64,000 nucleotides of DNA from Minisyncoccota bacterium (GTDB taxonomy: Bacteria; Patescibacteriota; Minisyncoccia; UBA6257; 2-01-FULL-56-20), in the NCBI GenBank assembly GCA_036510525.1, contig DATCDU010000020.1:246-64245 (forward strand). The letters run 5' to 3'. Below the pieces are notes generated by a model. It ran no database searches and was not told where the DNA came from. It worked only from the letters and a program-made list of their open reading frames with translations. The translations under genes were made by a program, and so were the position numbers. Shown here piece by piece: positions 2,143 to 56,946 of this stretch. The number at the start of each line of letters is the position of its first letter. Positions within the stretch are counted from its first letter, which is position 1.

Positions 2143-4827
2143 ATGGAGCTGACAATCACAAAAAGAGACGGAACAAAAGAACCATTCAACGCGGATAAGA
2201 TCAACCGCTCCATCGAACGCGCATGCGCGGGACTGCAGGATCCCATCGGTATGGTGACACAGATCGCCACGGAGACGCGACTGACGCTCTATGATGGCAT
2301 CACGACGGAAGAAATGGACCAGGCGACGATCAACGCCGCCGTGCAGAACATAAAAGAGGATATCGAGTACGATAAAGTCGCCGTGCGATTGCTTTTGAAG
2401 ACCATTTATAGAAAAGTCGTCGGCGATTACGAGGATAATGTGGAAATTTTGCGAAAGAAACATCGCGACGGTTTCGCCGCGTGGGTAAAGAAGGGGGTCG
2501 CGGACGGAATTCTCGATCCGCGCATGGCGGAGAAGTTCGACTTGAAGGATCTCGCGAGCGCGCTCGATATCCGTCGCGATGAATTGTTCGTCTACAGCGG
2601 ACTCTCGACCGTCCTTCATCGCTACTCCATCAAGGACGTGAAGAACGATCCCGCGGAGACGCCGCAATATCTTTTCATGCGCATCGCGATGGGACTTTCG
2701 TTCAACGAAAAAGATCCGACGCTCTGGGCAAAACGTTTCTATCAGAAGATGTCGCAGATGAAGTACATCGCCGGCGGTTCCACGAATCTTGGCGCGGGCA
2801 CCACGCGTCCGTCGCTCTCGAATTGTTTCCTTCTTCAGATCGAGGATGACATGGAGCACATCGCAAAATCCGTCGGCGACGTGATGATGCTCTCCAAGGC
2901 ATCGGGCGGCATCGGCGCGAACGTCACGAAGTTGCGCGCGACGGGCTCCCCTCTTAAATCGAACAACACTCCTTCGAGCGGTCCGACGCCGTTCGCAAAA
3001 ATAATAGACACGGCGATCCGTGCCGTGCAACGCGGCGGAAAGAAAAAAGGCGCGCTCTGCTTCTATATGGAAAACTGGCACATCGACTTCCCCGAATTTT
3101 TGGATTGGAAGCACAACGCCGGCGATGACTATATGCGCATGCGCACCGCCGACACCGCGGCATTCATCTCCGACGAGTTCATGAACCGCGTCGCGAACCG
3201 AGATTTCTGGTACATGTTCGACCCGAAGGAAACGCCGGACCTGATCGAGCTTTACGGCAAGGAATTCAGCACGCGCTACGCGGAATATGTGGAAATGGCT
3301 GAAAAGGGCCAGTTCCGGGTGTTCAAGAAGGTCCCTGCGGAGGAATTATATAGACAGATGCTCGGCGCCCTACAGGCGACAGGCCATCCGTGGCTCACGT
3401 GGAAGGATCCGATGAACCTTCGTGCTTTGAATAACAATACCGGCACGATCCATATGTCCAACCTCTGCACGGAGATCTGCCTTCCGCAGGACCGCGAGAA
3501 CATCGCCGTCTGCAATCTCGCCTCGCTCAATCTCGCGAGCCACGTACACAACAAACAGATCGACTGGGAAAACCTGGAAGAGAGCATTCGCTTCGCTATC
3601 CACCAGCTTGATAACTTGATCGACATCAACGTGCTCCCCATCGCAGAAGCGCAGCACTCGGATCAGGAGAATCGCGCGATCGGATTGGGGGTGATGGGAT
3701 TCTCCGACATGCTCGAGCAGGTCGGACTTTCGTACGAGAGCGAGCACGCGCACAACTTCGCGGACAAGGTGTTCGAGTTCGTGAGCTACGTCGCGATCGA
3801 CGAGAGCGCAAACCTCGCGGCAGAGCGCGGAAGCTATAATAATTTTCAGGGATCCGGATGGTCGAAAGGCATGGTGCCGATCGACACGATCAAGACATTG
3901 GAAGACGGCCGCGGTATGACGCTTACCGTCGCGAAGGAACACCGCTATCGCGGATTGAACTGGGACGCGCTCCGCGAAAAAGTGAAGAAAGGAATGCGCA
4001 ACGCGACGCTCATGGCCACCGCGCCGAACGCCAACATCGGGCTCGTCGCCGGCACGACGCCGGGCATCGATCCCCGCTTCGCGCAGGTGTTCTCGCGCAA
4101 TAAGATCTCCGGAAAATATCTGGACCTCAATCACAACCTGGTGAACGATCTCAAGAACATGGGCATCTGGGAAAAAACAAAAGAGCGGATCATCGCCGAC
4201 CAGGGAGACATCTCCGCGATCGACGAGATCCCGCAGCACATCCGCGATATCTATAAGACATCGTTCAGCACGTCGCCGTACGCATTCATCGAAGTGGCCG
4301 CGCGCGCGCAGAAGTGGATGGACCAGTCGCTCTCGCGCAACATGTACCTCGAGACGCGCGACATCGGCGAGATGATGGACATTTATGCGACCGCGTGGAA
4401 GAAAGGGTTGAAGTCCACGTACTACCTGCACATGAAGCCGCGCCACACTGCGGAGCAGTCGACGGTGCGCGTGAACAAAGCGGAGCAGATGGGCAAGCGT
4501 GGATTCGCCGCGGTGATGGAAGCGGCCGCCGAAGCGCCGGTGACGGAATCAGTGGAGGTGACCGTGGCACAACCGGCAGCGCAGCCCTTTGCCGTCGTGG
4601 AGGCCGTCGCATCCTTCGTGAGCGCGCCGGTTACGGCAAGCACCGCGGAAGCCCATACTACGACGACCCCTATCGAGGCAATGCCCGTAAAGGCAGAGAT
4701 GCACATGCATGACGCCTTGGAACCCCATACCCATTCCGTAGCCCAGGGCTCATCCCCCGCCAACGCCCCGCGCATCATGCCGCCGAGCGATCCGATGGAG
4801 CAGTTCATCTGCGACAGCTGCCAGTAG
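2143..4827 (+). CDS. nrdA: Ribonucleoside-diphosphate reductase alpha subunit (class Ia), with an Ala/Pro-rich C-terminal linker before the CxxC tail
   Basis: N-terminal ATP-cone (KRDGTKEPFNADKINRSIERA), active-site NxCxE region (SNLCTEI), C-terminal FICDSCQ redox tail; 894 aa. Confidence 0.95.
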   Translation: MELTITKRDGTKEPFNADKINRSIERACAGLQDPIGMVTQIATETRLTLYDGITTEEMDQATINAAVQNIKEDIEYDKVAVRLLLKTIYRKVVGDYEDNVEILRKKHRDGFAAWVKKGVADGILDPRMAEKFDLKDLASALDIRRDELFVYSGLSTVLHRYSIKDVKNDPAETPQYLFMRIAMGLSFNEKDPTLWAKRFYQKMSQMKYIAGGSTNLGAGTTRPSLSNCFLLQIEDDMEHIAKSVGDVMMLSKASGGIGANVTKLRATGSPLKSNNTPSSGPTPFAKIIDTAIRAVQRGGKKKGALCFYMENWHIDFPEFLDWKHNAGDDYMRMRTADTAAFISDEFMNRVANRDFWYMFDPKETPDLIELYGKEFSTRYAEYVEMAEKGQFRVFKKVPAEELYRQMLGALQATGHPWLTWKDPMNLRALNNNTGTIHMSNLCTEICLPQDRENIAVCNLASLNLASHVHNKQIDWENLEESIRFAIHQLDNLIDINVLPIAEAQHSDQENRAIGLGVMGFSDMLEQVGLSYESEHAHNFADKVFEFVSYVAIDESANLAAERGSYNNFQGSGWSKGMVPIDTIKTLEDGRGMTLTVAKEHRYRGLNWDALREKVKKGMRNATLMATAPNANIGLVAGTTPGIDPRFAQVFSRNKISGKYLDLNHNLVNDLKNMGIWEKTKERIIADQGDISAIDEIPQHIRDIYKTSFSTSPYAFIEVAARAQKWMDQSLSRNMYLETRDIGEMMDIYATAWKKGLKSTYYLHMKPRHTAEQSTVRVNKAEQMGKRGFAAVMEAAAEAPVTESVEVTVAQPAAQPFAVVEAVASFVSAPVTASTAEAHTTTTPIEAMPVKAEMHMHDALEPHTHSVAQGSSPANAPRIMPPSDPMEQFICDSCQ

Positions 4828-4852
4828 AAATTCTCAATCTCAGAAACGGATT

Positions 4853-4880
4853 AAAAATGGCGCTCCGGTGCGCCATTTTT
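4853..4880 (+). terminator. Intrinsic terminator after nrdA
   Basis: aaaaatggcgc-tccggt-gcgccattttt, an 11-bp perfect stem beginning 26 nt after the stop; the 3' arm ends in a T-run. Confidence 0.7.
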
Positions 4881-5131
4881 AACACCACAACACTTTGAAT
4901 ATTTGTTCTTCCGTATATCCGCACTTCCCTTGAAGAAAGCTCCTTACAAAATCCCAGACTAAACCCGCTTTCAAGGGTTTGTGATTCGGCACTACGGTGG
5001 CTTCATTCGTCGCGCTGTAGGTTATTTTATAACATGCTTACTTGCGCGTTTAATGGTACATCTACCCAACTTATTACAAGCCTTAACTAAATCCTCAAAA
5101 GAACAATTTACTAATTTTGGATAATCCACGA

Positions 5132-5527
5132 TTAAGAAACTCTCTGTAATTGACGGATTTGATCGAGATTCTGTTTCGGCAAAATATCTTCCAAGGTATA
5201 TTTCTCCGGAGGATTTTCTTCCGCAACGATATTTTTTACGGATTCCACGGGTAAATAATGTCCGAGTTCTGGAATTAATTTTTCAGGAGCATTGTAATAG
5301 GCATAAACCGCTCTCGTAAGAATATCAAAAAGCTCAGAGAAGGTCTCTCCCTGGGAATAGCAAGGGATCTCTATCGCCTTTGCCCAATAACCACCCTCTT
5401 CGGCTTTGTTAACTTGTACACTTAACAAGCTCGGGAGGACGGCTTGGAAAAGTAATTTTTCTTCGTTTTTTTCAGCCATATAATATATTAACGATTTAAG
5501 TATCCCACTTGTTGCAACCACACACAA
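5132..5527 (-). CDS. HicB-like (UPF0150) antitoxin-domain protein; no cognate HicA recognised
   Basis: ...EGGYWAKAIEIPCYSQGETFSELFDILTRAVYAY resembles the HicB/UPF0150 fold signature; lies in an AT-rich insertion between nrdA and nrdB; alternative start at 5479 (MAEKNEEK). Confidence 0.5.
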   Translation of the reverse strand: MCVVATSGILKSLIYYMAEKNEEKLLFQAVLPSLLSVQVNKAEEGGYWAKAIEIPCYSQGETFSELFDILTRAVYAYYNAPEKLIPELGHYLPVESVKNIVAEENPPEKYTLEDILPKQNLDQIRQLQRVS

Positions 5528-5610
5528 GGACAGTATTATAACATAGTTAAAATGTAGGTCAAATCAATATCTATTGGGAGAATTATCCACAGATAAACCC
5601 TCGAAACCTA

Positions 5611-5770
5611 CGATCTCTTACGGAGCTCACGGGACGGCACCCACTCATCGTAACGCGTTCGATGCCGGCAAGCCGGTCTAATTGCGACCCGCAGTAGAGC
5701 CGAAAGATGGCGAAGCCACCTCGGGGGAATTAGCTCCCCTTTTCTGCGCTTTCAGTTCCGTAAGAGATTG
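5611..5770. other. GC-rich structured non-coding segment closed by a 12-14-bp long-range inverted repeat
   Basis: cgatctcttacgga (5611-5624) pairs with tccgtaagagattg (5757-5770), enclosing ~132 nt with internal hairpins (e.g. gggggaattagctcccc); no ORF; function unknown. Confidence 0.3.
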
Positions 5771-5811
5771 CAACTTTTATGACTGATTTAAGTTTAACAA
5801 TCCGACCAAGC

Positions 5812-5857
5812 AAGTCAAAAGCTATTTAATGATTTTTTAATAATATCGTCTTACTTA
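5812..5857. repeat. 44-nt AT-rich conserved motif, copy a
   Basis: AAGTCAAAAGCTATTTAATGATTTTTTAATAATATCGTCTTAC; ~40 of 44 positions identical to copy b at 57292-57336. Confidence 0.6.
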
Positions 5858-5977
5858 GATTCCTCCACATTCCGCCTACTTTCCTGATCCCCTGTCAACG
5901 TTGTTGACCGCGCCATTTTCACCTATAATCTTTTTACCCTCGTCCTGGGAATCTGTAAAAATAATAGAACATAAACC

Positions 5978-6973
5978 ATGTTGATCGGCAAAGCATCCCC
6001 GGAGGATATGAACCTCCACCCAATTCAATATCAGTGGGCATACGACCTCTATCAACAGGCGGTACGCAACACGTGGTTCCCTCACGAGATCGCGCTCAAG
6101 GAAGACCTCTATGATTGGGAGAAGATGACGGAGGACGAACGCCACGCGGTGAAGTTCCTGATGGCATTCTTCAATCCGGGCGAGCTCATCGTCAACCGCT
6201 CGATTGCGCTCGGCATCTATCCTTATTTGAAGTCGCCGGAGTGCCATCTCTACCTTGCGAAGCAGATGTGGGAAGAAGCAAATCACTGCGTTGCCTTTGA
6301 ATACGTTTTGGAAACATTCCCGCTTGATCGCACGAACGTGTTCAACCTGCACCTCGACACGCCGTCGATGAAAGCCAAGGAAGATTACATCAATAAGTAC
6401 ATGCGCCGCATGACGGAAGACACGCTTGACGTCGAGACGCCGGAGGGCAAGAAAGATTTCATCCGCAACCTCGTGGCGACGAACATCGTGATGGAGGGCA
6501 TCTGGTTCTACAGCGGCTTCATGGTGGTGCTCTCGTTCCGCCAACGCAACCAGCTCCGCAACTTCGGCTCAATGATCAACTGGGTGATCCGCGACGAATC
6601 GCTCCACCTCAAGTTCGGCATGAACCTCATTCAGAATATTTTAGAAGAGAATGCCGAATTGCTCACGAAAGAATTTGCGAACGAGATCAAACAGATCGTG
6701 ATCGACGGTGTGGACCTTGAGGTGGCCTACAACAAAGATCTTTTCCCGCGTGGCATCCTCGGCCTGAATGCCGACTATGTGAACCAGTACGTGCAGTACG
6801 TCGCCGACCGGCGCCTGGAAGAGCTCGGCATCGGCCCGCACTACGGCGCGAAGAATCCCGCTAAGTGGATGGCGGGCGCGACCGACGTCCTCGAGCTCGT
6901 CAATTTCTTCGAGGCGCAGAACACGTCGTACGAAGTGGACAGCCACGCCGCCGATAAAAAGAAGGAAGCATAA
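5978..6973 (+). CDS. nrdB: Ribonucleoside-diphosphate reductase beta subunit (class Ia)
   Basis: Ferritin-like di-iron R2 motifs (..WEEANHCVAFEY..; ..DESLHLKF..); 331 aa. Confidence 0.95.
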   Translation: MLIGKASPEDMNLHPIQYQWAYDLYQQAVRNTWFPHEIALKEDLYDWEKMTEDERHAVKFLMAFFNPGELIVNRSIALGIYPYLKSPECHLYLAKQMWEEANHCVAFEYVLETFPLDRTNVFNLHLDTPSMKAKEDYINKYMRRMTEDTLDVETPEGKKDFIRNLVATNIVMEGIWFYSGFMVVLSFRQRNQLRNFGSMINWVIRDESLHLKFGMNLIQNILEENAELLTKEFANEIKQIVIDGVDLEVAYNKDLFPRGILGLNADYVNQYVQYVADRRLEELGIGPHYGAKNPAKWMAGATDVLELVNFFEAQNTSYEVDSHAADKKKEA

Positions 6974-7725: not shown

Positions 7726-7791
7726 AAATTGATTAAATGACCGCTATTGAAAATCCACCCCCGTCTGCTACAATAGTATTCGTATTGTAAT

Positions 7792-8072
7792 TCCGCGATA
7801 GCTCAATGGTAGAGCGGCGCCCTGTCAGCAAGGCAGCTCGCATCGGAAACGGTGCGATGATAAAAATCTTGGGATAACGGTGAATGCTAAGTCCGCAAGG
7901 ATATGCGAATACCGTGGGAACCCTCCGCACGGGAGGGGCACCGTAGAGACTAGATACCGAGATGCCTAACACCCGCAATGGGCGGGTCATGGCAATGATA
8001 TAGTCCACGCCTCTTGGAAACATTAGGAAACGTGTAAGGCGATGGTTCCAGGTTCGAGTCCTGGTCGCGGAG
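7792..8072 (+). tRNA. tRNA-Asn(GUU) interrupted by a group I intron in the anticodon loop (alternative reading Thr-UGU)
   Basis: 5' exon TCCGCGA-TA-GCTC-AATGGTA-GAGC-G-GCGCC-CTGT (7792-7825); 3' exon TAA-GGCGA-TGGTT-CCAGG-TTCGAGT-CCTGG-TCGCGGA-G (8035-8072). Spliced product has anticodon loop CUGUUAA, U1-A72 and G73 as in E. coli tRNA-Asn. Confidence 0.75.
7826..8034 (+). ncRNA. Group I self-splicing intron (~209 nt) in tRNA-Asn
   Basis: Contains group I conserved R element GTAGAGACTAGA (ccgtagagactagatacc) and S element GATATAGTCC; 5' exon ends in U; intron ends in G before the 3' exon. Confidence 0.7.
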
Positions 8073-8138
8073 CAGTCAATATCTTTTATCGGACAGACCG
8101 AGAGGCATCGATTTTTGCTATCTTTTTTGATGCTAAAA

Positions 8139-14435: not shown

Positions 14436-15002
14436 CTAAGCCGTTGGAAGAGCCTTTGGCGGATCAAACTTGCACCGCTCGCCATTCACTAGGCCGAAAC
14501 CGGTGAGATGGATAAAGAACAGGTCCCAATCGTCGCCGCCATCGGTCGTACTCACGCATTCGTCGTTGATGTACTTTGTTGCGCTATACTTTTTATCTTT
14601 GTCGTCGTAGCCGATTATGAGATGACAATTGTCTCCGTAGACGTTGCGATATCTCATGCAGCTCAAATAGCCATCTTTTTTGTAAGTATGGAATTCCGGT
14701 TCATAGAGAGCGCTACCGGTTACCTGTCGCCCATTGTCAATCCGTGTGCCCATATAGAGGACATTGAAGGGAAAGCGGTTCAGCTCTGGATTCCAGGAAA
14801 TCTCCAAACGCTGCGGCACGAAAGCGAATCTCGTTTTTGCGTCTTTCTTGAGTATTGCTTTTTCTTCTTTGTTAAATTGTCTCATAAAATTGCGAAACCC
14901 TGCCGCGAGGCAGGGATGATAAATGTTTGCTTCGACCTTTATCTTTCCCTTGCGGGCTGGATGTAGCACCGTATCGTTTCCGATTGGTTGCCGGTGGGTC
15001 AT
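14436..15002 (-). CDS. Hypothetical protein (188 aa), no recognisable domain
   Basis: ORF only; low-GC island context. Confidence 0.4.
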   Translation of the reverse strand: MTHRQPIGNDTVLHPARKGKIKVEANIYHPCLAAGFRNFMRQFNKEEKAILKKDAKTRFAFVPQRLEISWNPELNRFPFNVLYMGTRIDNGRQVTGSALYEPEFHTYKKDGYLSCMRYRNVYGDNCHLIIGYDDKDKKYSATKYINDECVSTTDGGDDWDLFFIHLTGFGLVNGERCKFDPPKALPTA

Positions 15003-15194
15003 TGAGCCAGTGCTCTCGCCACACTCTTGATAACTATTCAGTTGTGCTTACCATTCCATTCTAGCAAATGCTTCAAACAATACAAGCGACTTTCTCCGGT
15101 GTAAGCTTCATTTTTCCCGACCCAATGTATCTTGTATTGTTTCGCATCGCGCGGCCGATCGACGAGAAGACGAGGCGTGAAGTCGTGTATCAGT

Positions 15195-30356: not shown

Positions 30357-30427
30357 TTTCTTATTGTACCACGTAGGGAGGGTAGCTGAGACGCTTACAA
30401 AAACGTTAAAAAATCATTAATTAGCTT

Positions 30428-30456
30428 TTGACTTTGCAAAGAAATCTAGTATTATA
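30428..30456 (+). promoter_or_regulatory. Near-consensus sigma70-type promoter (TTGACT-16/17 nt-TATTAT), divergent from cyoA
   Basis: ttgact (30428-33) ... tattat (30450-55). Confidence 0.45.
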
Positions 30457-30460
30457 GTTC

Positions 30461-30550
30461 ATGAAAGCGGTGATCCGTTAGAAGACGGATTCCATCTCCG
30501 TTTTGGCACAGAAACGACCACCCCACCGTGGTCGTTTCTGTTTAAATAGT
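30461..30550 (+). ncRNA. Candidate leader/attenuator or small RNA: 6-codon mini-ORF, hairpin, 14-bp terminator
   Basis: ATGAAAGCGGTGATCCGTTAG (MKAVIR*); gacgga-ttccatc-tccgt hairpin; acagaaacgaccac-cccacc-gtggtcgtttctgt then tttaaatagtttt; ends ~160 nt upstream of the response regulator. Confidence 0.25.
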
Positions 30551-30712
30551 TTTAATCCCTCTTGTGATACGGTGGTCTTGCCTGTGGATCGTGGGGCCCG
30601 TCGTCTATGAAGTAGGACACCGCTTTTGCCAAAACGGAAAACCGGGCGCAAGTTCCGGCGGGTCCACAGGTTCGGCCGATTAGTGTATACTAAGAAAAAT
30701 CTTATTCATTCC

Positions 30713-43050: not shown

Positions 43051-43171
43051 GGAAGACAGTATATCCAATAAGAAGCACCTTTGCAAGTAGACGAGGACGA
43101 GTGCCTAAAAATCATTAAATATCGATTAAAAACTTTTTGACATTCGTACTGCGCGACGTATCCTTAGTGGC

Positions 43172-43492
43172 ATGATAAAAACAAAAAGGAAGGGTGATGA
43201 AATGGTCACGAAGGAAATGTTCCAGAAAGTCTTTCATAAGGGAATCGGCGATCTTGCGATCCTTATTAACAAGAGCTTCGTCGGGATAGAATCCCGTATG
43301 GCTAAGCAGGAGGACCTGCTTGAACTCACGAGGCGAGTGGATAAATTGGAAAAATATGCGGAAAACCGTTTTGACGATCTTGCGCGCGAATTGAGAGAGA
43401 TCCGTCACGAAATTAAGGAGGTGGACACTCGCGCAGATGTCGTGGATTTACAACTCCGCGTCAATAAACTAGAGAAGAAAATGGGCATGTAG
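43172..43492 (+). CDS. Coiled-coil hypothetical protein
   Basis: 106-aa ORF; competes with antisense ORF 43115-43408. Confidence 0.3.
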   Translation: MIKTKRKGDEMVTKEMFQKVFHKGIGDLAILINKSFVGIESRMAKQEDLLELTRRVDKLEKYAENRFDDLARELREIRHEIKEVDTRADVVDLQLRVNKLEKKMGM

Positions 43493-56937: not shown

Positions 56938-56946
56938 ATCTATATA

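Follow-up and report, generated by a model that had tools for sequence, protein, structure and literature searches.

The 64,000-nucleotide (nt) stretch of Minisyncoccota DNA analysed here (the window; positions 246 to 64,245 of contig DATCDU010000020.1) carries, in the spacer between nrdA and nrdB, a 44-nt AT-rich motif that recurs far away in the same stretch, in both places beside a GC-rich segment closed by a long-range inverted repeat. This raises the question of what the motif does, as a promoter, a protein-binding site or the end of a mobile element, and of what the structured segments next to it are. An earlier note, made from the sequence alone, had left these possibilities side by side. 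Our own reading, to which we give a probability of about 0.75, is that the motif belongs to a conserved promoter of Paceibacteria, that its copies b and c head a small RNA (sRNA) together with a tRNA-Ala-like RNA, and that copy a, the one in the nrdA-nrdB spacer, heads a structured leader RNA. The coordinates of all features are collected in Table 1.

The repeat itself is real. Positions 5813-5847 (copy a) and 57291-57326 (copy b) match across about 35 nt and share the identical 17-mer TTTAATGATTTTTTAAT, with 2 mismatches to a degenerate pattern for which 0 matches are expected by chance (100 shuffles). The earlier count of two copies is incomplete: a looser 17-mer search finds a third copy (c) at 30405-30440, on the opposite strand to a and b (17-mer core at 30405-30421 of the minus strand, 2 mismatches), and a profile search finds a fourth, weaker one at 43107-43164 (nhmmer E = 3e-5). 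The recurrence is not due to chance.

Among the ideas put forward before was an outward-facing promoter, prompted by TTGACT in the reverse complement of the motif, and this is the one that held. In all window copies a -10 box follows TTGACT at a distance of 16 nt, within the 16-18 nt expected of sigma-70-type promoters. The motif was also searched for genome-wide, as the earlier note had suggested, by an exact-pattern scan of one genome per species with a pattern that consisted of the A-tract word and GTCAAAA only and contained no -10 box. This gave 43 loci, about 40 of which lie in metagenome-assembled genomes (MAGs) of ~0.8-0.9 Mb from Paceibacterota/Parcubacteria/Minisyncoccia, with up to ~10 loci per MAG; the remaining 3 matches (Mesoflavibacter, Staphylococcaceae and Thorarchaeota) look like chance, and the viral contigs scanned gave two chance matches only, both in AT-rich phage coding sequence. 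A TAnnnT hexamer is present exactly 16 nt past TTGAC(T/A) in 38 of 44 related sequences, and in 14 loci the ATG of an 80-130-amino-acid (aa) open reading frame (ORF) lies 6-8 nt past the -10 box, as expected of leaderless mRNAs that start at the A of the ATG. Since neither the spacing of the -10 box nor the leaderless ATGs were forced by the search pattern, both support a promoter function. The products of the 14 ORFs are small coiled-coil proteins for which we found no significant Pfam or NCBIfam family. Taken together, the data support the motif's reverse complement as the upstream half of a strong promoter of the sigma-70, housekeeping type (consensus TTGAC(T/A)-N16-TAnnAT preceded by two phased, UP-element-like A-tracts), which would fire on the strand opposite to the one read in the earlier note; because of this direction, the GC-rich segments that had been described as lying upstream of the motif are probably its transcripts, with starts at the predicted positions. 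The class appears to be conserved across Paceibacteria (Candidate Phyla Radiation, CPR), where it would head small RNA genes as well as genes for leaderless small coiled-coil proteins.

As an element, the motif is of an ordinary kind: a sigma-70 promoter with a UP-like block, newly defined for this lineage. Its closest likeness is to E. coli promoters of the rrnB P1 type, which also combine a -35 TTGACt, a 16-nt spacer and a -10 TAnnAT, have two A-tracts near -42 and -52 and drive genes for stable or small RNAs; these positions fall in the -40 to -60 range of UP elements and agree with the proximal and distal UP subsites of rrnB P1. Unlike there, the upstream block of the window class is a nearly fixed word, ATTAAAAAATCATTAAA, common to dozens of promoters across genera, the promoters also drive leaderless mRNAs, the hosts are uncultivated CPR bacteria and contact with the alpha subunit is putative. 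The block could instead be an operator for a dedicated transcription factor, with the sRNAs and coiled-coil proteins as its regulon. We regard this as possible rather than likely, and it would be compatible with the rest of our reading. The conservation of the block (>=90% per position, far above that of the -10 box or the spacer) would fit an operator, as would its presence at a subset of promoters only, the motif being absent from the promoters of the canonical tRNA genes of the window (tRNA-Ile/Val and tRNA-Cys), and a related word, TTTTAATG, that occurs in opposite orientation in a second box described below; but the search pattern itself accounts for most of this conservation, the motif has no regulator gene linked to it, the A-tracts stand at the UP subsite positions, and in the fourth copy one repeat is shifted by ~10 bp, consistent with helical phasing.

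In four other loci (L025, L027, L039 and the first match in L047) the motif promoter drives short structured transcripts that converge, with a terminator in common, on genes that look PemK/MazF-like by eye. These transcripts may be antisense RNAs of toxin genes.

What, then, are the segments? The long-range inverted repeats reported beside copies a and b are present, and their arms could be located: 5604-5627 and 5754-5777 in copy a, with a 12-bp exact core (ATCTCTTACGGA and TCCGTAAGAGAT), and in copy b two arms that are complementary in 12/12 positions and enclose a 14-bp hairpin (S, S' and terminator hairpin in Table 1). Copy c has the layout of copy b. The distances given from segment to motif, ~40 nt in copy a and 64 nt in copy b, were also right. 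The two segments share a layout only superficially, since they are different, non-homologous RNAs: in copy b the distal arm falls in the anticodon arm of a tRNA-like gene, and copy a has a multi-hairpin RNA of its own. That the segments are unrelated, and that an anticodon arm forms part of copy b, had both been overlooked.

Copy b has homologous units in 15 other loci, and nhmmer finds the full composite unit in 17 loci. Each is built, in this order, from a 5' segment, a hairpin (P1), a 12-14-nt sequence (S), a strong hairpin with a U-run, a box of the form TTTAGATAGTTTTAATG-N10/11-TAnnnT, a 5' extension, a tRNA-like cloverleaf and a 3' extension complementary to the 5' one. At least 4-5 paralogous units are present per MAG (~0.85-Mb genome), and their sites are conserved across genera: upstream of secE, of a gene for an LTD protein, of the gene for an OmpR-type regulator and of the gene for component F of the type II secretion system (T2SS-F). 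The arrangement of copy c, ahead of the OmpR-type gene, is also found in L031, L033, L040 and L044, and L062 has a unit within its nrdA-nrdB spacer. There is no conserved small ORF in the sRNA, with early stops in copy c and L040. The box that follows the U-run is probably a second promoter, because the same box also precedes protein genes and another tRNA-like RNA that have no terminator upstream. The unit would thus comprise two genes, one for a terminated sRNA of ~85 nt and one for the tRNA-like RNA; the second box may use another sigma factor or an activator. Occurrences of the box were seen at 30541-30575 in the window and at ~5797 in L012, ~4571 in L024, ~5371 in L046, ~6833 in L044, ~4275 in L047 and ~3374 in L021.

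The inverted repeat of copies b and c corresponds to pairing of the sRNA sequence S, the seed, with positions 34-46 of the tRNA-like RNA (S'), a stretch that runs from the anticodon through the 3' strand of its stem into the variable region. In an unbiased search for the longest Watson-Crick helix between each leader and its own tRNA-like RNA, 16 of the 17 units gave 10-14 bp, always between leader positions ~35-50 and tRNA-like positions 34-46. Shuffled leaders reach a mean of 5.7 bp (0.9% at >=9), and non-cognate pairs 4-7 bp between different syntenic groups, with up to 13 for close orthologues and related groups; this longest-helix matrix replaced an RNAduplex matrix on whole leaders, which was uninformative due to spurious long pairings. 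Within the window, each seed is matched perfectly by its cognate site only. The S:S' helix is 96.4% paired on the alignment (A2), with changes on both sides in 9 of 11 pairs, and RNAalifold chooses it unaided, stacked on the terminator hairpin. The covariation score of the whole structure is 0.417 compared to 0.204 for shuffles (0 of 500 reach 0.417) and drops to <=0.10 when the partners are slid. When each sRNA is folded alone, its 5' end pairs with the 5' half of S in a G·U-rich stem, while the 3' half, which is complementary to the anticodon loop, stays open between two hairpins. Three pairings therefore compete and exclude one another: that of the anti-seed with the seed, that of the seed with S', and that within the weak anticodon stem. 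The strongest of them is the intermolecular one between seed and S'.

Seed and target are always adjacent, on one strand and in one order in 16 units, which raises the possibility that copies b and c each make one precursor RNA whose leader folds back in cis onto the anticodon arm (forming a pseudoknot with the acceptor stem) and whose hairpin with its U-run is an attenuator for the tRNA-like RNA, so that no trans-acting sRNA exists. The minimum free energy fold of the whole region, which has S:S' stacked on the hairpin, and the weakness of the second box in copy b also favour such a precursor. We nevertheless consider it improbable. The hairpins are good intrinsic terminators with U-runs, and the box that follows them has TAnnnT at a fixed spacing and also precedes protein genes and a tRNA-like RNA with no sRNA upstream. 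Furthermore, in L018 (7177-7570), L047 (3950-4290, minus strand) and L021 (3360-3700, plus strand) the genes stand the other way round, with the tRNA-like RNA ahead of a motif-type promoter and its terminated sRNA, of which 11-17 nt are complementary to the D and anticodon arms of that tRNA-like RNA (in L018, for example, GGTAGCAAACCAGAGCC facing GGCTCTGGTTTGCTACC). This reversed order argues for pairing in trans, which it would require; the reversed-locus RNAs of L047 and L021 lack G3·U70. Finally, an sRNA with seed and terminator is kept with no tRNA-like RNA downstream in L020 (165-250, minus strand), L032 (2840-2960, minus strand) and L021 (6850-6949, minus strand), and at the T2SS-F site of L020 the tRNA-like part is cleanly missing relative to L034.

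The second gene of the unit has much of a tRNA-Ala. G3·U70 is the major identity element of alanyl-tRNA synthetase (AlaRS) and is used by transfer-messenger RNA (tmRNA) as well. In the tRNA-like RNAs the acceptor stem is regular and 100% paired, with G1-C72, G2-C71 and G3·U70 in 15 of 15 aligned units and A73 in 14 of 16; in one MAG it is identical to that of the canonical tRNA-Ala(UGC) of the same MAG. The D and T stems covary, as does the extension helix formed by the 5' and 3' extensions, and inspection by eye shows that a D-loop GG goes together with UUCGA in the T-loop and a D-loop AG with YGCAAGU, suggesting that the elbow is kept. With Ala identity and elbow both intact, the RNAs are candidates for recognition by enzymes that act on tRNAs, among them RNase P, the CCA-adding enzyme and AlaRS. 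The anticodon arm is different. Its stem is 75.8% paired, with 2-5 of 5 pairs per unit, and the two pairs next to the loop are disrupted in 9 and 5 units out of 15. All 16 units have C at position 37, and within one syntenic group the anticodon drifts between UGA, CGA, UAA and GAG; the loop of copy c is UUUGCCA. A decoding tRNA would be expected to have an unbroken anticodon stem of 5 bp, a purine as nucleotide 37 and the anticodon of its orthologues. The stem is broken in most units and the other two features are lacking, and judged by these features the RNAs are not decoding tRNAs. That they are nonetheless ordinary tRNAs (Ser or Leu as called by ARAGORN, or Ala from a UGC anticodon), with an incidental complementarity upstream, is very hard to maintain: several are detected by ARAGORN and by the Rfam tRNA model at 38-50 bits, and D arm, T arm and acceptor stem are intact, but each anticodon drift within a syntenic group is compensated in the leader, the 37th position and broken anticodon stems speak against decoding, the identity elements are those of Ala whichever the anticodon, a canonical tRNA-Ala(UGC) coexists in one MAG, and helices of 10-14 bp, where shuffles average 5.7, are no incidental match.

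Detection of these genes by standard tools is uneven. The tRNA-like RNA of copy b scores 38.6 bits on the Rfam tRNA model (RF00005, threshold 29) in relaxed-filter/E-value mode only and is missed in gathering mode; ARAGORN labels it tRNA-Ser(tga), the one of copy c is not called at all, and relatives score 45-50 bits on the Rfam model. ARAGORN names the tRNA-like RNAs tRNA-Ser or tRNA-Leu by their anticodon, despite their tRNA-Ala identity elements. Automatic tRNA inventories of these MAGs are likely to be wrong.

Copy a heads a different RNA. RNA a (fold z = -3.3) matches no Rfam family at E <= 10 and does not resemble the units of copies b and c. In the closest relative, L059, the motif promoter and the downstream ORF are kept and exactly 5568-5760 is missing (junction ...GCAATCTCTTA|TGATTTGACC...), so that RNA a amounts to an insertion or deletion of ~193 nt; its 3' part is complementary to pre-existing leader sequence. 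In L139, a strain whose ORF is 97% identical, RNA a is present, with 19 differences. All 8 of the 8 differences at predicted paired sites keep the pairing, one of them as a double change, and several of the pairs are G·U pairs valid on the minus strand only, which, for the two sequences compared, supports a structured minus-strand RNA. No homologue of RNA a was found in the 43 motif loci or upstream of hicB-like homologues in other contexts, and RNA a is missing from 80 loci with NrdB relatives of 79-96% identity. An origin from a miniature inverted-repeat transposable element or insertion sequence finds no sign either, as RNA a occurs once in the window and nowhere in ~0.9 Mb of related loci, with no target-site duplication visible at the L059 junction. 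Copy a thus appears to be a lineage-restricted insertion in the leader of a hicB-like gene, and its likeliest role is that of a structured leader, or of an RNase III-type processing module, on transcripts that read through into this gene. The label 'HicB family nuclease' is given by the Joint Genome Institute (JGI) to three homologues of the 115-aa ORF; neither this ORF nor its 83-aa partner has anything significant in Pfam or NCBIfam. The second reading frame behind the hicB-like ORF (4890-5131, minus strand) is broken by stops in the window, and intact partners of 83-85 aa follow the homologues in L052-L054; the broken frame may be a decayed toxin gene.

That the motif is an element terminus, an alternative named in the earlier note, and that the inverted repeats act at the DNA level as recombination sites of an invertible or mobile segment, is highly improbable. 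This reading would account for perfect Watson-Crick arms 118-126 bp apart, for the near lack of G·U pairs in S:S' (the one observation that it explains as well as an RNA-level model does), for the insertion/deletion polymorphism of copy a among close relatives and for the missing tRNA-like part in L020, but the arms vary by locus, differing between paralogues of one genome and between orthologues yet changing together, whereas site-specific recombination depends on a core that is conserved; the 17 assembled units are all oriented alike, the loci are syntenic across genera (upstream of secE, the OmpR-type regulator and T2SS-F), there is no visible target-site duplication and no second copy of RNA a, and RNA a has stems with G·U pairs that can form on just one strand.

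Several observations weigh against our interpretation. The start sites, the 3' end at the terminator and the two-transcript model are all predicted from sequence, the second box has no recognisable -35 element and is degenerate in copy b, and the AT block could be an activator site instead of a UP element. The S:S' helix is nearly pure Watson-Crick, with G·U pairs at its ends only, a pattern that a constraint at the DNA level would give as well. CCA is not encoded at the 3' ends of the tRNA-like RNAs and the 3' trailer pairs with the 5' leader; this extension helix might block normal processing of tRNA ends, and alanylation is putative. Nor is the cloverleaf simply a vestige, since covariation persists in the three outer pairs of its anticodon stem. 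For RNA a, there is one informative homologue only.

We also compared the RNAs with known systems. The Rfam search that had been proposed matches no family to the segments except for the weak tRNA match, which leaves no place for a Y RNA or another Rfam family in either segment. The cobalamin riboswitch, which the earlier note had tried and correctly dismissed, has no match in 4800-6000, either at gathering threshold or at E <= 10. Control of nrdB by an NrdR-type system is ruled out, as the motif recurs at loci unrelated to nrd, and a retron msr-msd does not fit, with no reverse transcriptase gene near the copies (neighbours: nrdA/nrdB/hicB-like, T2SS-E/F, cyoA-like/OmpR-type). A tmRNA is likewise rejected: ARAGORN is negative in tmRNA mode, Rfam tmRNA models have no match, and >=4-5 paralogues per MAG contrast with a single gene. 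The likeness to tRNA-Ala and the tRNA-like domain of tmRNA lies in the acceptor-stem identity elements described above, in the intact T and D arms and in an anticodon that is irrelevant to identity, and, as in tmRNA, the region of the anticodon arm is engaged in a different, longer helix. Unlike these, the units have 4-5 paralogues per ~0.85-Mb genome, no tag reading frame, no pseudoknots and no encoded CCA, and the partner strand of the long helix would come from a separately promoted sRNA.

With the antisense systems CopA/CopT, RNA I/RNA II and Sok/hok, the units share a short RNA that carries a stem-loop and a single-stranded seed and ends at a terminator; a target that offers a 7-nt loop of the anticodon type; and 10-14 bp of complementarity specific to each cognate pair. 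Here, the target is a tRNA mimic and not an mRNA or a replication primer, and the genes are tandem on one strand, non-overlapping, chromosomal and syntenic across genera. A T-box leader also reads a tRNA anticodon by base pairing, directly upstream of a terminator. For T-boxes, there is no RF00230 match even at E <= 10, the leader is ~50 nt long and no conserved UGGN antiterminator is seen by eye. The pairing of 10-14 bp would unzip the anticodon stem, unlike a 3-nt codon-anticodon contact, the units lack a Stem I platform, T-box sequence and antiterminator, and the downstream gene is the tRNA-like RNA itself. Finally, the pre-tRNA spacer sponge 3'ETS-leuZ (with RyhB/RybB) and the tRNA-like YrlA RNAs are precedents for tRNA-derived RNAs that pair with regulatory RNAs or mimic their partners, YrlA having kept the tRNA elbow and replaced the anticodon arm; in our case, a dedicated tRNA mimic is paired through its anticodon arm, every mimic with its own co-evolving partner, and there is no Rsr/Ro context and no Rfam match. 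The pairs of sRNA and tRNA mimic have single traits in common with antisense systems, with T-boxes and with the tRNA-like domain of tmRNA, and lack the defining features of each.

Table 1. Predicted features of the motif copies and their transcripts. Positions are those of the window; ranges written from high to low follow the minus strand.
Feature	Position	Strand	Details
Copy a UP-element-like block	5819..5847	-	two A-tracts, centres near -42 and -52; 44 related sequences share the block as ATTAAAAAATCATTAAA
Copy a core promoter	5791..5818	-	-35 TTGACT 5818-5813, 16-nt spacer, -10 TAAACT 5796-5791; predicted start near 5784 (promoter scan)
RNA a, structured leader RNA	5568..5784	-	closing stem (17 bp): 5' arm 5773-5757, 3' arm 5624-5608; 4-5 internal hairpins; 3' hairpin 5600-5576
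Downstream unit of copy a	5132..5562	-	own strong promoter TTGACC-N16-TATAAT 5562-5535; 115-aa hicB-like ORF 5479-5132; broken second ORF; terminator 4846-4880
Copy b promoter	57270..57326	-	UP-like block 57298-57326; -35 TTGACT 57297-57292; -10 TAGTAT 57275-57270; predicted start near 57263
Copy b sRNA	57178..57265	-	5' anti-seed 57265-57254; P1 hairpin 57255-57234; seed S 57227-57216 (CUCUGCGUGUCA); terminator hairpin 57214-57184, then UUUU
Copy b second promoter-like box, degenerate	57140..57171	-	AAATTTAATGG ... TATGGT, ahead of the tRNA-like RNA; weak (nhmmer E = 0.13)
Copy b tRNA-Ala-like RNA	57044..57136	-	5' extension 57136-57131; cloverleaf 57124-57053; S' (positions 34-45) 57091-57080; 3' extension 57049-57044
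Copy c promoter	30405..30455	+	UP-like block 30405-30427; -35 TTGACT 30428-30433; -10 TATTAT 30450-30455
Copy c unit	30461..30678	+	sRNA: seed S 30497-30508, terminator hairpin 30508-30541; second box 30541-30558; tRNA-like RNA 30594-30666, S' 30627-30638
Fourth promoter, weaker, same class	43107..43164	+	heads leaderless 106-aa coiled-coil ORF 43172-43492

The nrdA-nrdB spacer that holds copy a is 1.15 kb long (nrdA 2143-4827, nrdB 5978-6973) and also contains the minus-strand 115-aa ORF; proteins identical to the NrdB of the window are found on metagenome contigs only. Copy b is located between the genes for T2SS-E and T2SS-F, both on the minus strand, and copy c between a divergent membrane-protein gene and the gene for the OmpR-type regulator (start 30714). 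Two long, near-perfect palindromes with stems of ~26 to 40 bp stand on either side of copy b (56944-57024 and 57340-57454), the first of which is also conserved ahead of the T2SS-F gene of L036, a site at which another sRNA takes the place of the unit. Elsewhere in the window, a SAM-I riboswitch at 14936-15036 (minus strand; RF00162, 58 bits) is the sole known cis-regulatory RNA. A tRNA gene at 7790-8075 (plus strand) is split in its anticodon loop by a group I intron of ~195 nt, which Rfam Intron_gpI matches at 7834-8027 with 26 bits (E = 1.3e-4, under the gathering threshold) and which is missed by ARAGORN and by Rfam in gathering mode; a 96-aa ORF called on metagenome contigs (7733-8023, minus strand) overlaps this tRNA gene and is probably spurious.

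How could such a pair work? The motif promoter would transcribe the ~85-nt sRNA, consisting of the 5' anti-seed, the P1 hairpin, the 12-nt seed and an intrinsic terminator, and the second box would separately drive the tRNA-Ala-like RNA. U-turn loops nucleate pairing in classical antisense systems. In a similar way, the anticodon loop may nucleate pairing with the single-stranded 3' half of the seed, after which the duplex would spread and open both the weak anticodon stem and the G·U-rich anti-seed stem of the sRNA. In this way the sRNA would act as a switch that decides whether the tRNA mimic is a cloverleaf or is bound to the sRNA, and the switch would presumably control processing, alanylation or partner binding of the mimic. 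In copy a, the same class of promoter would transcribe another RNA, the ~193-nt insertion with its 17-bp closing stem in the hicB-like leader. The recurrence of the motif, the geometry of the promoter, the covariation and the insertion/deletion in copy a are direct observations; the transcription start sites, the separateness of the two transcripts, alanylation and the direction of regulation are what the model adds to them.

A wider claim, which we put forward tentatively and at somewhat less than even odds, is that Paceibacteria hold a so far undescribed kind of RNA-RNA module, with several orthogonal pairs per genome, each made of a tRNA mimic with Ala identity and a private antisense sRNA whose seed co-evolves with the anticodon arm of the mimic. 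The sRNA would toggle the mimic between a tRNA-shaped and an unzipped form and so gate aminoacylation, processing or a use outside translation, with the AT-rich motif marking the sRNA promoter. Full-text literature searches returned no description of the motif or of sRNA/tRNA-like pairs, which is absence of evidence within the literature searched, and the pairs appear to be undescribed so far. We know of no promoter or sRNA biology for the Paceibacteria, a large uncultivated lineage, in which the motif now provides a simple handle for highly expressed small-RNA genes and leaderless small-protein genes. While the motif alone is an ordinary promoter, the interest lies in its transcripts, the unexpected co-evolving pairs of sRNA and tRNA-Ala-like RNA. 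If true, these pairs would represent RNA regulation aimed at a tRNA-shaped RNA in minimal-genome bacteria, and possibly a new regulatory principle.

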